Shown: positions 1 to 6,047 of the stretch, piece after piece
Layout: each line of letters starts with the position of its first letter
Numbering within the stretch: the stretch's first letter is position 1
Assembly: GCA_036556145.1 (NCBI GenBank)
Contig: DATBKB010000095.1
Coordinates: forward strand, 809-64,808
Direction: 5' to 3'
Source of the DNA: Candidatus Limnocylindrales bacterium
GTDB lineage: Bacteria > Chloroflexota > Limnocylindria > Limnocylindrales > CSP1-4
Length of the DNA: 64,000 nt
Notes under the pieces: model-generated
What the model saw: only the letters and a program-made list of their open reading frames with translations
Databases searched by the model: none
What the model was told of the DNA's origin: nothing
Program-made: the position numbers and the translations under genes

Positions 1-2422
1 TGACGCCTCGCGCGCCGGGCGAGTAGCGGTTGATCGTGTTCGTCTCCGTGCGGATCACCTGGCCGCCGGCGCTGATGAGGAGCAGCTCCTCGTCCTGCTT
101 CGTCACCTGCTGGACGGCGGCCACGCTGCCGGTCTTGCGGCCCTCGAGCGAGATCAGCCGGACGCCCTGGCCGCCGCGGTGCTTCCGCCGGAACTCCTCG
201 AGCGGGACGCGCTTGCCGTAGCCCGTCTCGGTGAGGACGAGGAGATCGGCGCCGGGCTCGACGACGCTCATCGCGACAACGCTGTCGCCCTTCTTCTTGA
301 GCAAGCGGATGCCGATGACGCCGGCCGCGTCGCGGCCCATCGGCCGCACCTCGCCCTCGGCGAACCGGGCGAGCATGCCTTCGGATGTCGCAATGATGAT
401 GTCGTCGCTGCCGGCCGAGACGTCGACCCAGGCGAGCTCGTCGTCGGAATTGATCGAGATCGCCCGGATGCCCGTCGCGCGGACGCGCTCGAACTGCTCG
501 AGCGGCGTCTTCTTGATCATGCCCTTGCGGGTCGCCATGACGAGGAAGTTGCCCGGCTCGAAATTCGGCACGACGATCGTCGCCATCGGCACCTCGCCGG
601 CCTCGACCTGGACACCCGGCAGGTTGATGATCGGGACGCCCTTCGCGTAGCGGCTGGCGTCGTTGATCTTGTGGACCTTCGTGCTGAAGACCCGGCCGCG
701 GTTCGTGAAGAACAGCGCCCAGTCGTGGGTGTTGGCCACGAGCAGGCTGTCGACGGCATCCTCCTCGCGGGTGACGTGGCCGATGATCCCGCGGCCGCCG
801 CGGTGCTGGCGTCGATAGGCCGCGACCGGCTGGCGCTTGATGTAGCCGCGGCCGCTGATCGTGATCACGACGTCCTCGTGGGAGATGAGGTCCTCGTCGC
901 TCATCTCGCCGCTGACGTCGTCCTCGACCTGGGTCCGGCGCTCGCCGGCGTACTTCCGCTTCAGCTCGCGCAGCTCGTCCTTGATGATTCCGAGCACGCG
1001 CGCCGCGTTGGCGAGGATGTCCTCGAGCTCGGCGATGAGCTGGATGACCTCGAGGTACTCGTCCTCGATCTTCTTCCGCTCGAGGGCCGCCAGCCGGGCG
1101 AGGCGCATGTCGAGGATCGCCTGGGCCTGCAGCTCCGAGAGCTTGAACTTCGTCATGAGGTTGGTCCGGGCGACGTCGACGTCGGCCGACTCCCGGATCG
1201 TCTTGATGACCGCGTCGAGGTGATCGAGCGCGACCTTGAGGCCCTCGAGGATGTGCGCCCTCGCGCGGGCCTTGGCGAGGTCGTACTCCGTCCGGCGCCG
1301 GACGATCTCGCGGCGGTAGTCGACGTAGTGCTGGAGGACGGACTTGAGCGGCAGCGTCTGGGGCTGCCCGTCGACGAGCGCCAGCATGTTCATGTTGAAC
1401 GCGAGCTGGAGGGCGGTGTGCTTGAAGAGGTTGTTGAGGACGCTGTGCGGGTTCGAGTCGCGCTTGACCTCGATGACGACCCGCATGCCGTCGCGGTCCG
1501 ATTCGTCGCGGAGATCGGCGATGCCGTCGATTCGCTTGTCCTTGACGAGCTCGGCGATCTTCTCGAGGAGCGCCGCCTTGTTGACCTGGTAGGGCAGCTC
1601 CGTGACGATGATCGCCATCTGATCGCCCCGGATCTCCTCGAACGCGACCTTGGCGCGCATGACGACGCGGCCGTGGCCGTGGGCGTACATCTGGCGGATC
1701 GCGTCGACCTTCTCGTTCTCGCCGGTGAGCGTCCGCTGGACCTCGTAGCGGTAGATCGTCCCCCCGGTCGGGAAGTCCGGACCCGTCACGTGCTTGCAGA
1801 GGTCGTCGGTCGTGATCGACGGATCGTCGATGAGGGCGATCGTCGCGTCGCAGATCTCGCCGAGGTGATGCGGCGGGATGTTCGTCGCCATCCCGACGGC
1901 GATCCCCGACGACCCGTTGATGAGGAGGTTCGGCAGCTTCGCCGGCAGGACCGTCGGCTCCTTCTGGGTGCCGTCGTAGTTGTCGGTGAAGTCGACCGTC
2001 TCCTTGTCGATGTCGGCGAGCATCTCGGCCGCGATGCCCGTCAGGCGTGCCTCCGTGTAGCGCATCGCCGCCGCGGCGTCGCCATCCACGCTGCCGAAGT
2101 TGCCCTGCCCGTCGACGAGCGGGTAGCGCATCGAGAAGTCCTGGGCGAGGCGGACGAGGGCGTCGTAGAGCGCCACGTCGCCGTGGGGGTGGTACTTGCC
2201 CATCACCTCGCCGACGATCGCCGCGCACTTGCGGTAGGACGAGGTGGCGCTCAGCCCCATCTCGCCCATCGTGTAGAGGATCCGCCGGTGGACCGGCTTC
2301 AGGCCGTCGCGAACGTCCGGCAGCGCGCGAGCGACGATGACGCTCATCGCGTAGTCGAGGTAGGCGACCTTCATCTCCTCCTCGATGCGGATGGCTCGGA
2401 CGTCGCCCAGTTCTTCGGTCAC
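1..2422 (-). CDS. gyrA: DNA gyrase subunit A (3' part runs off the window edge)
   Basis: Minus-strand translation gives the GyrA N-terminus ([50 protein letters not shown]...) and the C-terminal beta-pinwheel region further downstream. First in-frame start after an upstream TGA is GTG at 2422. Not in the ORF track because it is open at the window edge; the 179..2779 + ORF is its antisense artefact. Confidence 0.9.
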
Positions 2423-2456
2423 GGTCGCGGTTTCCTCCGGGTCGGCGGGAACGGTC

Positions 2457-3443
2457 TCATGTCAGCGGCGGCTCCGGCATCGGGCGGCCGAGGTCCATCG
2501 ACTCGAAGCGGGCCGCGGTTCCGGCGGCTCGGGACGTCGCCGCGGCGCCGGGCCGGCGGCGGATCCCGGTCAGGCTCTCGCGGAGCTCGTCGGCAGCGAC
2601 GGGATCGAGCTTCGCCAGCGCATCGCGGACGACCCATGCCCGGTGGCCGTCGTCGTCGCTCACCGCCGTCGCGGCCTCTCGCCGGCAGAACGCCTCGACC
2701 CCCGATCGGTCGACGAGGACGAGCGACCGCAGCGCCCAGGCGAGCGCCTTCTGGACATCCGGCTCGGCGTCGCCGATGAGCTCCCCGACGAGGGCGAGGC
2801 CCCGTCGCGCGACGTCCGGCTGGCGGCCTGCCGAGCGGTCGATGAACGGGATGGTCGCGACGGTCGACCCGACGAGCCGGCGCTCCCAGCGGGACGGCGA
2901 GTAGACGAGCTGCTCGAGCTCGGCCCAGCGGTACGGTTCGAGGAGAATGCCCCGGCCGTAGGGATGGGCGAGCGTGTCGACGGTGATCCAGTCGCCCGCA
3001 TCCCGGGCGGCCCGGCGCAGGAGCTGCCAGACCCGCTCCGGCTCCTTCGGGACCAGGGCCTCGAGGATGCCGAGCGCGAACCAGCGGTACTCGAGGGCCG
3101 TTTCCCGGAACAGCCGCTCCGCGATGAACAGGAGCGGCGCGGGCGAATCCTTGCGGGTCGCGCGGCGGAACGTCCGGGCGATCCCCGCCATCAGCGGCCA
3201 GCGGATCCCGAGGACCTCGCCGATGCCGGGGGCGATGAACTGCTGCCCGGCCACGTACTCCGGGTCGGCGAGGCCGGCGAAGCCGCGCCGCAGCTCCACC
3301 ACGAACTGGTCCGGGTCGCCGACGAGGTCCGCCAGCTCGAGGCCGAGCTCCTCGGCGCCCGCTCGTCGGGCGGCGACGAACGCCACCGCGCGCTGCGTGG
3401 TCGGCGAGGGCTTCGATCCCTTGATCGTGGTCGCGGCGGTCAT
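2457..3443 (-). CDS. DNA alkylation repair enzyme, AlkD/AlkC-like HEAT-repeat DNA glycosylase family
   Basis: 328 aa. Motifs align with B. cereus AlkD ([11 protein letters not shown] vs WWDTVDSLA; [12 protein letters not shown] vs NIWLRRTAIL; [13 protein letters not shown] vs FIQKAIGWALREY). Its start overlaps the stop of the upstream thioesterase (ATGA at 3440-3443). Confidence 0.7.
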
Positions 3444-4054: not shown

Positions 4055-4067
4055 GCCCGCCCGGAGA

Positions 4068-6047
4068 TCAGACGTCAAGGTTGCGGACCTTCCGTGCCTC
4101 GGTCTTGATGAAGTCCTTGCGCGGCCCGACCTTCTCGCCCATGAGCATCGTGAAGATCTCATCGGCCTGCGCCGCGTTCTCGCTGTCGACCCGCAGCAGC
4201 GTGCGGGTCTCGGGGTTCATCGTCGCCTCCCAGAGCTGATCGGCGTTCATTTCGCCGAGGCCCTTGAAGCGCTGGACCGAGAGGTTCTTCGTGTTGAACT
4301 CCTTGACGACGCGATCCCGCTCCTTCTCGCTCTGGGCGTACTTCGTCACCTTGCCCGTGCTGATCCGGTAGAGCGGAGGCTGGGCGATGTAGAGGTAGCC
4401 GGCTTCGATGACCTGGGGCATGAAGCGATAGAAGAAGGTCAGCAGCAGCGTTCGGATGTGGGCGCCGTCGACGTCGGCGTCGGTCATGATGATGACGCGG
4501 TGATAGCGAAGCTTCCCGAGGTCGAAGCTGTCGCCGATCCCCTCGATCCCGGCGCCGAGGGCAATGATCAGCGGGCGGATGTTCTCGCTGGCGACGATCT
4601 TGTCGAGGCGGGCCTTCTCGACGTTCAGCAGCTTCCCCCGCAACGGGAGTACCGCCTGGAACCGGCGGTCGCGGCCCTGCTTCGCCGAGCCTCCGGCCGA
4701 GTCGCCCTCGACGATGTAGAGCTCGCTCCGTGCCGGATCGCGCTCCTGGCAGTCGGCCAGCTTTCCGGGCAGGGACAGGCCGTCGAGGGCGCCCTTGCGG
4801 ATGACGAGGTCGCGGGCCTTGCGGGCCGCTTCCCGGGCGCGCGCCGCGGTGAGGCACTTCTCGATGATCCGCCGGCCGTCCGACGGATTCTCGTCCAGGT
4901 ACGCTCCGAGCCGGTCCGACACGGCCGCCTGCACCTGGCCCTTGACTTCGGCGTTGCCGAGCTTCGCCTTCGTCTGGCCTTCGAACTGGGGGTCGGTGAG
5001 CTTCACGCTCACGACGGCCGTCAACCCTTCCCGGACGTCATCGCCGGTGAGGTTCGGGTCCGACTCCTTGAGGACACCGGCCCGGCGAGCCCAGTCGTTG
5101 AGCGAGCTCGTGAGCGCGGCCCTGAACCCCGTGACGTGCGTACCGCCATCGACGGTGTTGATGTTGTTGGCGAACGCCAGGACGTTTTCCGTGTAGGTGT
5201 CGTTGTACTGGAGGGCGACCTCGACGGCGGTGCCGTTCTCCTGGTGCTCGACGTAGATCGGGCGGGTGTGGAGGACCTCCTTGTTCCGGTTGAGGTGACG
5301 CACGAACGACTGGAGGCCGCCCTCGAAGTAGAAGGATCGCTCGCGGTCGGCACGTTCATCGACCAGGGTGATCCAGACGCCCTTCGTCAGGTACGCGGAC
5401 TCTCGGAGACGCTGGGCGATCGTGTCGAACTCGTAGTCCGTCGTTTCGAACATGCCGGGGTCCGCGCGGAACCGCGTCAGGGTGCCACGGCGATCCCCCT
5501 GCGGTCCGAGCTTCCGGACGGCGTGGGAGGGCTTGCCGCGGACGTACTCCTGCATGAAGACGTGTCCATCGCGCGCGGACTCGACACGCAGCCACTCGGA
5601 GAGGGCGTTGACGACGCTGACCCCCACCCCGTGCAAACCGCCGGATACCTTGTACCCGCCGCCACCGAATTTGCCACCGGCGTGGAGCATCGTATGGACG
5701 ACCTCGAGGGCGTCCTTGCCGGTGGAGTGCCGGCCGACGGGTACGCCTCGGCCATCGTCCTGGACCTCGACCGTCCCGTCCTTCTTGATCGTGACTGTGA
5801 TCCGGCGGGCGTGACCGGCCATCGCCTCGTCGATCGAGTTGTCGACGACCTCCCACACGAGGTGGTGCAAGCCACGGGAATCGGTCGAGCCGATGTACAT
5901 GCCAGGTCGACGGCGGACCGCTTCGAGCCCTTCGAGGACCTGGATGCTGGCCGCGGTGTAGTCGGAGCCGGGGCGGCCCTTCCGCGTGCGGCCGTTCCCG
6001 GAACCGTTCCGGTCGCGCACGGCCATCGTGGTTGCCTTTTCGGTCAC
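4068..6047 (-). CDS. gyrB: DNA gyrase subunit B
   Basis: 659 aa with full-length GyrB hallmarks (GHKL ATPase, toprim, C-terminal tail; [55 protein letters not shown]). GTG start overlaps the parB stop (GTGA). Confidence 0.95.

Follow-up and report, generated by a model that had tools for sequence, protein, structure and literature searches.

AlkD of Bacillus cereus is a HEAT-like-repeat alkylpurine DNA glycosylase with W109, D113 and W187 as its catalytic residues (PMC8626424) and the Y27/K29 B-helix as its damage-recognition element (PMC4433238). With the same triad, enzymes of the AlkD family remove adducts of the SCPCHD type, to which yatakemycin, CC-1065 and duocarmycin belong, and the self-resistance glycosylases YtkR2 and C10R5, from producers of yatakemycin and CC-1065, resemble AlkD in fold and share all three catalytic residues with it (PMC8626424). 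Streptococcus mutans AlkD2 is without the B-helix, the loss of which abolishes damage recognition (PMC4433238). Here, we examine a gene for an AlkD-like protein located between gyrB and gyrA in a stretch of 64,000 nucleotides from a Candidatus Limnocylindrales bacterium (GCA_036556145.1, contig DATBKB010000095.1, positions 809 to 64,808), the whole of which is referred to as the window. Our literature searches returned no account of an AlkD-family gene placed within a gyrase operon or between gyrB and gyrA.

A previous sequence-only reading of the window stated that gyrB and gyrA are normally adjacent, which applies to many Firmicutes and Actinobacteria; in E. coli and most Proteobacteria they are not neighbours. 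That reading regarded the genes between them as an insert in this genome, and our results show instead that the arrangement is ancient and fixed across the class Limnocylindria, a class that is uncultivated to our knowledge.

Conservation of the AlkD-like gene between gyrB and gyrA

Related loci were gathered from three long-contig contexts, from GTDB genomes scanned at one per species, and from metagenomes, where a scan that started from the most distant members contributed 80 more loci. Homologues of the AlkD-like protein number in the thousands in Chloroflexota metagenome-assembled genomes (MAGs), at 64-79% identity and automatically annotated as AlkD. Relatives turned up in at least 531 GTDB species genomes, and the best 80 of them, nearly all labelled Candidatus Limnocylindria/Limnocylindrales or Chloroflexota/Chloroflexia, have an identical gene order. 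In the three long-contig contexts, rodA, PBP2 and mreD are followed by the divergent series parA-parB-gyrB-4HBT-DNA_alkylation-gyrA-prs, in which 4HBT stands for a hotdog thioesterase and DNA_alkylation for the AlkD-like protein.

Neighbours were counted in 165 distinct related loci, each time using only those with enough flanking sequence. The upstream neighbour of the AlkD-like gene was gyrB, with or without the hotdog gene, in 148/148 loci and the downstream neighbour was gyrA in 143/143, so that the word insert does not describe the arrangement. Every subfamily member with readable surroundings sits between these two genes. The gene of the most distant member tested (P0144, at 42% identity), which comes from a contig of 1.14 Mb, shares 8 nt with gyrB and 4 nt with gyrA, and its locus has no hotdog gene. 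The deeply conserved core unit is gyrB-AlkD-like-gyrA, and the thioesterase is optional. The sequence-only reading had treated universality of the arrangement in the clade as a reason to doubt a functional link; the distribution scan found that it is indeed universal in the clade, and this universality, together with the intact reading frames described below, argues for retention under selection rather than irrelevance.

The only apparent exception to the synteny was seen in a Limnocylindria-like metagenome contig (L091:8966-12678), in which gyrA is split after residue 123, near the GyrA active-site tyrosine region, by an intein-like insertion of about 1.25 kb. Six loci (L019, L033, L035, L043, L052 and L053) come from MAGs labelled Verrucomicrobiia, Sulfomarinibacteraceae, Saccharimonadales, Patescibacteria or Thermomicrobiales and carry the full Limnocylindria-type locus, parAB-gyrB-hotdog-AlkD-like-gyrA, with gyrB 85-88% identical to that of the window. 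These bins are probably mislabelled or contaminated.

The AlkD-like protein

The sequence-only reading had already assigned the protein to the AlkD family, and this assignment holds up on three counts, namely its Pfam hit, its predicted fold and the residues aligned to the catalytic triad. The protein matches PF08713 (DNA_alkylation) with an E-value of 2.9e-25 and 89.7 bits against a cut-off of 21, its residues 55-278 covering profile positions 5-212 of 213, and the distant members P0141, P0144 and P0165 also pass this profile. An AlphaFold model from 22 homologues is all-helical, with a predicted local distance difference test score (pLDDT) of 89 and a predicted template modelling score (pTM) of 0.84. 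When this model was compared to the PDB with Foldseek, B. cereus AlkD (3BVS, 3JX7, 5CL3) was the top match, with an E-value of about 1e-4 and a TM-score, normalised to the target, of 0.64-0.73. Enterococcus faecalis EF3068 was also among the best matches. AlkC, which came after these two in the ranking of HEAT-like-repeat proteins, and S. mutans AlkD2 (smu.31, 3L9T; a weak match with an E-value of 3e-2) appeared further down. The model therefore predicts an AlkD-like alpha-alpha superhelix of HEAT-like repeats.

Alignment to an AlkD reference sequence 100% identical to PDB 3BVS, by local hhalign at low mact and by three MAFFT modes, placed AlkD W109, D113, R148 and W187 on W152, D156, R189 and W236 of the window protein, a mapping with which the Pfam profile coordinates are consistent. 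The confidence of hhalign was high only at the W236/W187 segment and lower for W152, D156 and R189. All four residues are invariant in 164 sequences.

The gene is also intact. A single tblastn high-scoring segment pair per locus, with no frameshift, was obtained in the 163 loci analysed, and the ratio of nonsynonymous to synonymous substitution rates (dN/dS) is 0.34, against 0.15-0.17 for the gyrase genes. An intact frame in 163/163 loci and a dN/dS of 0.34 rule out a pseudogene and are evidence of purifying selection. At 50% identity, only 418 clusters among 1.84 billion representatives reach an E-value of 1e-3 or below, and on this sequence clustering the protein belongs to a discrete, divergent subfamily.

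Compared to B. cereus AlkD, the window protein is about 90 residues longer and arginine-rich instead of lysine-rich, and its subfamily has an extra N-terminal helix (residues 14-38) and a C-terminal tail of 50 residues (positions 2457-2606, minus strand). Wherever the context is readable, the subfamily is found only inside the gyrase operon, a further difference from AlkD. Different lineages share the conserved tail GIRRRPGA(P)STSRAA...F...LG...PEPPL(T), and in most sequences PEPPL(T) ends within one residue of the C-terminus. Because PEPPL is encoded by 53 different synonymous 15-mers, its conservation is at the protein level. The "G-E-R-F/M...AR" endings of some homologues were considered as a second peptide motif and rejected, as they are more simply read as translated gyrA ribosome-binding region where the open reading frame (ORF) enters gyrA.

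The reading that we favour, with a probability of roughly 0.55, is that the AlkD-like protein is an active, non-base-flipping glycosylase of the AlkD type made from the gyrase operon mRNA. Judged from the aligned residues and the modelled fold, its Trp-Asp-Trp triad would excise cationic or bulky alkylpurines without base flipping. Gene order, operon geometry, predicted fold, residue conservation, purifying selection and class-wide distribution are observed here, whereas catalysis, the substrates and a possible gain from making the protein together with gyrase are what we infer.

Several results weigh against this reading. Identity to AlkD is only about 16%, and the probability given by hhalign for the pair is 20%, with only the W236 segment confidently aligned. 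PDB sequence searches (phmmer/hmmsearch) with the protein and with profiles of close or diverse homologues returned no match to AlkD, so the link to AlkD rests on Pfam, the fold search and the hhalign/MAFFT alignments. In the alignment, the damage-recognition residues Y27 and K29 of the AlkD B-helix fall on I70 and P72. Both tryptophans have been lost in a minor clade (P0165, P0271, P0176 and P0272; W152 replaced by R, P, A or T; W236 by A or R), and the one contig of this clade that was read, that of P0165 (L166:697-1686), keeps the gene in its slot between the hotdog gene and gyrA; retention there is thus not strictly dependent on catalysis, and operon position can outlast it. Finally, the region is syntenic overall, with prs following gyrA in 50/52 loci, although secA is adjacent in only 38/52, and a conserved order is by itself no proof that linkage or co-expression has been selected for.

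The Y27/K29 positions and the tryptophan-less clade would also fit a non-catalytic DNA-binding protein of HEAT-like repeats, comparable to S. mutans AlkD2 or B. cereus AlkF/AlkG, in which the tryptophans would be structural. The residues replacing Y27/K29 recall the loss of damage recognition in AlkD2 (PMC4433238), and the persistence of a clade without both tryptophans points the same way. So do the motifs that are invariant across all lineages, among them DGxRAWV, which correspond to the DNA-binding motifs of the family and not to the triad. However, W152, D156 and W236 are jointly invariant in the 164 sequences, and neither tryptophan is lost without the other, as expected of a triad; judged from these sequences, the joint loss fits a functional one. 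Moreover, the main family has a region that corresponds to the B-helix, an element missing in AlkD2; a short helix (61-66) and a strongly conserved DPEY...APGxG...LGVRxPL segment occupy it, at a pLDDT of only 64-74, and D60, Y63, G66, P72, G73 and R81 are conserved within the subfamily. We regard a non-catalytic role as unlikely for the family as a whole, and AlkD2 may be an analogue for the tryptophan-less clade.

The same operon slot and the conserved tail raise another alternative, in which the protein would be a gyrase-associated accessory factor, with its HEAT-like-repeat groove on DNA and docking on GyrA or GyrB, for example through the PEPPL tail. Such a factor could couple lesion scanning or abasic-site shielding to supercoiling, or modulate gyrase, and coupled translation would provide a matched supply. 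Its appeal lies in a discrete subfamily (the 418 clusters) that is found only between gyrB and gyrA, down to 42% identity with both neighbours overlapped, in a position stricter than that of the hotdog gene or of downstream secA, as well as in the conservation of PEPPL at the protein level and in the retention of operon position by the tryptophan-less P0165. Nevertheless, the equivalents of the triad are invariant in 164/164 sampled loci, pointing to an enzymatic role, and fusions were seen only with the hotdog protein and never with GyrA or GyrB. We know of no recognised docking motif that PEPPL matches and of no gyrase partner with a HEAT-like-repeat AlkD fold, which also counts against this alternative. 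An accessory factor of this kind is doubtful in our view.

The genomic context bears on a role like that of the YtkR2-type self-resistance glycosylases, to which the sequence-only reading had referred. By analogy to YtkR2, to C10R5 or to AlkD acting on yatakemycin adducts, the protein could be a specialised resistance glycosylase directed at bulky DNA-alkylating natural products in soil, instead of a general repair enzyme for 3-methyladenine and 7-methylguanine. The excision of SCPCHD-type adducts by AlkD-family enzymes with the same triad (PMC8626424) is in line with this, as are the lineages themselves, mostly soil organisms: Limnocylindria are abundant in soils, where the family QHBO01 can reach up to 30% abundance in samples (PMC13212565). 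Unlike the genes of YtkR2 and C10R5, which are found in genotoxin biosynthetic clusters, the AlkD-like gene has parAB, gyrBA, prs, secA and cell-wall genes as its surroundings. No biosynthetic families were found by Pfam among the scanned ORFs of the window, only housekeeping, cell-envelope, pilus and regulatory families, and the housekeeping neighbours in relatives are the same. With no biosynthetic cluster or resistance context nearby, self-resistance of the YtkR2 type has no contextual support, and class-wide fixation in a core operon better suits a housekeeping role. A resistance function is therefore distinctly improbable.

Operon organization

Six co-oriented minus-strand genes fill the first 8 kb of the window, in the order parS-parS, parA, parB, gyrB, hotdog thioesterase, AlkD-like gene and gyrA (Table 1), and neighbouring genes from parA to gyrA overlap or have spacers of at most 34 nt. 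The Pfam and NCBIfam matches, the coordinates and the parS scan agree with the gene identities, overlaps and parS sites of the sequence-only reading. The parA stop and parB start overlap as ATGA, the parB stop and the GTG of gyrB as GTGA (6044-6047), and the hotdog stop and AlkD-like start as ATGA (3440-3443). No gene separates parB from gyrB, and gene callers place a gyrB start that overlaps parB in the relatives L001, L003 and L165. The gyrB stop and the gyrA start lie 1,645 nt apart. The longest spacer, 34 nt, lies between the AlkD-like gene and gyrA, with GGAGGA, resembling a Shine-Dalgarno sequence, 9 nt 5' of the gyrA GTG. GyrB scored 958.6 bits against the equivalog TIGR01059 (cut-off 882.4), and GyrA scored 1130 bits against NF004043 (cut-off 902). 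In one related locus (L165:3778-5502), parA and parB were called as a single ORF of 574 aa with both domains, which may be a genuine fusion or may stem from a frameshift where the two genes overlap in ATGA.

Table 1. Features of the parAB-gyrase locus in the window and residues of the AlkD-like protein
Feature	Position	Strand	Description
gyrA	1..2422	-	GTG start at 2422; first 807 aa, continues past the window start
AlkD-like gene	2457..3443	-	328 aa; PF08713, HEAT-like-repeat protein
Hotdog thioesterase gene	3440..4078	-	About 212 aa from TTG 4078, or 204 aa from GTG 4054
gyrB	4068..6047	-	659 aa from GTG 6047; alternative in-frame ATG 6026, 21 nt downstream
parB	6044..6913	-	289 aa; Pfam ParB_N, HTH_ParB, ParB_C
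parA	6910..7767	-	285 aa; Pfam AAA_31, CbiA, ParA-type domains
Extended -10-like element	7804..7812	-	TGATAGAAT; 36-45 nt 5' of parA start; candidate operon promoter
parS site 2	7912..7927		GGTTTCACGTGAAACG; 14/16 matches, only the outermost bases differ; 145 nt 5' of parA
parS site 1	7961..7976		TGTTTCACGTGAAACA; perfect palindrome, 0 mismatches; 194 nt 5' of parA start
AlkD-like protein residues	W152, D156, W236, R189		W152, D156, W236 putative catalytic; R189 putative DNA-binding; by alignment to AlkD

The locus has a complete ParABS set, namely a ParA ATPase, a ParB with N-terminal, helix-turn-helix (HTH) and C-terminal domains, and a consensus 16-bp parS, for which 0.00 matches were expected by chance in a shuffled-window control. 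Between one and three parS-like sites were found 5' of parA in 77/81 related loci. In an alignment of 82 distinct upstream regions, two blocks were conserved at 80% or more, parS site 1 and the -10-like element TGATAGAAT; the position of parS site 2 is not conserved there, and the same class of variant is common in relatives. A strict sigma-70 consensus scan did not call TGATAGAAT, which we propose as a promoter candidate from its position and conservation.

No terminator-like site was found on the minus strand from parA to gyrA. Co-transcription of the genes is strongly indicated, and we infer a single transcription unit that runs from the -10-like element through gyrA; the coordinated handling of DNA damage suggested in the sequence-only reading would go beyond co-transcription. 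The candidate promoter just downstream of parS would drive one long operon of housekeeping genes, parA-parB-gyrB-(hotdog)-AlkD-like-gyrA, which probably extends into prs. Since stop and start codons overlap or nearly abut, the AlkD-like protein would be made from the same mRNA as gyrase and its supply would follow gyrase expression, presumably constitutive and linked to growth and supercoiling. ParB bound to parS could in principle influence transcription of the operon.

The two genes between gyrB and gyrA have a GC content at third codon positions (GC3) of 0.93 and 0.88, and their composition and codon usage are native. Recent horizontal transfer of these genes was ruled out by these values together with the class-wide arrangement.

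Hotdog thioesterase

The gene that precedes the AlkD-like gene had been described as encoding a PaaI-like thioesterase. Membership in the 4HBT superfamily stands, with 34.6 bits to PF03061 against a gathering cut-off of 20.6, but the protein is not PaaI itself, as it scores 24.0 bits against the equivalog TIGR02286 (cut-off 118.9). Its closest PDB sequence matches are 2OV9, THEM4 and PaaI, and IAHGGILCTILDEV, with an intact HGG...D motif, can be aligned with the GxxHGG...D segment in both THEM4 (4GAH) and 2OV9, as in thioesterases of the PaaI/THEM2/THEM4 type. Unlike PaaI, it is encoded in a gyrase operon with no phenylacetate-degradation genes nearby. A start at TTG 4078 is more likely than one at GTG 4054, as it gives an 11-nt overlap with gyrB and the same geometry is found in the gene calls of relatives.

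The dN/dS of the hotdog gene is 0.32. It is missing in one diverged lineage (L084-L099 and L167), in which gyrB is 72-76% and the AlkD-like protein about 50% identical and the stop of gyrB and the start of the AlkD-like gene overlap directly. L013 (9955-10001), L112 and L160 are without the hotdog gene as well, and there too the AlkD-like gene abuts or overlaps gyrB; only truncated matches were found in L021, L059 and L063. The thioesterase is a dispensable member of the operon or a later passenger.

Two homologues, P0220 (460 aa) and P0244 (525 aa), are single ORFs with an N-terminal 4HBT region followed by the AlkD-like region. Such fusions would also arise from a 1-nt error within the overlapping ATGA, which makes them weak evidence.

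Comparison with origin regions

The canonical origin-proximal layout is dnaA-dnaN-recF-gyrB-gyrA, with gidAB-parAB and parS. As in these clusters, gyrB precedes gyrA in the same direction in the window and parAB is accompanied by consensus parS. Unlike them, parAB is head-to-tail with gyrB in one operon, one or two extra genes separate gyrB from gyrA, and dnaA, dnaN and recF are absent from the 64 kb as far as the scanned ORFs show. Of the window's 55 candidate ORFs, about 46 were scanned with Pfam, and none of these has a dnaA or dnaN domain. The strict DnaA box TTWTNCACA has 0 matches in the window, and the 44 near-matches to TTATCCACA are scattered, with no cluster and none in the parA-mreD spacer. 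A canonical oriC, with dnaA and dnaN by gyrB and clustered DnaA boxes, was not found by these scans of the window, and what the sequence-only reading called an atypical origin region is at most a candidate one. The parA-mreD spacer was provisionally rejected as a site of oriC, since it has no DnaA boxes and no AT-rich stretch beyond the 9-nt -10-like element. GC skew in the window flips with the direction of transcription, the coding strand being richer in C, with no replichore-scale trend, and because the skew tracks gene orientation it is no guide to an origin within the window.

Implications for alkylation repair in Limnocylindria

A gene of a glycosylase family that is fixed between gyrB and gyrA, translationally coupled and seen in no other context is a hint of coordination between repair and topology. 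This coordination may link base excision repair, or at least a lesion-scanning DNA-binding protein, to the control of DNA topology. In its boldest form, the AlkD-like protein would be a lineage-specific gyrase partner and third product of the gyrase operon, produced by coupled translation alongside GyrB and GyrA, docked on gyrase through PEPPL and tying lesion excision or abasic-site shielding to DNA cleavage and supercoiling, and possibly the main alkylpurine glycosylase of Limnocylindria. We hold this combination to be rather improbable. Because Tag, AlkA and MPG are missing from freshwater Limnocylindraceae, a 2026 study of Limnocylindria inferred that their alkylation repair has collapsed, and it makes no mention of glycosylases of the AlkD type (HEAT-like-repeat). 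The presence of the AlkD-like gene in Limnocylindraceae genomes would bear directly on that conclusion, and if the protein were the main alkylpurine glycosylase, the collapse of base excision repair drawn from KEGG orthologues (KO) would need revising. If it is only a co-transcribed housekeeping glycosylase, the finding would be a modest note on operon evolution.

Other features of the window

Outside the gyrase locus, a pilus cluster of the Tad/Flp type (43547-49632, minus strand) contains two T2SSF genes, a T2SSE ATPase, RcpC/CpaB and a fusion of a response-regulator receiver with a CpaE/ParA-like ATPase, and a two-component pair of the LuxR type lies near it at 51.7-53.7 kb. A protein of 515 aa (40466-42013, minus strand) has an N-terminal part of about 215 aa with no Pfam match and an AP_endonuc_2/xylose-isomerase-like TIM barrel in its C-terminal half only. 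The rplU ORF (14667-15488, plus strand) encodes 273 aa, of which the first 101 residues match ribosomal protein L21 and are followed by a C-terminal extension of about 170 residues.

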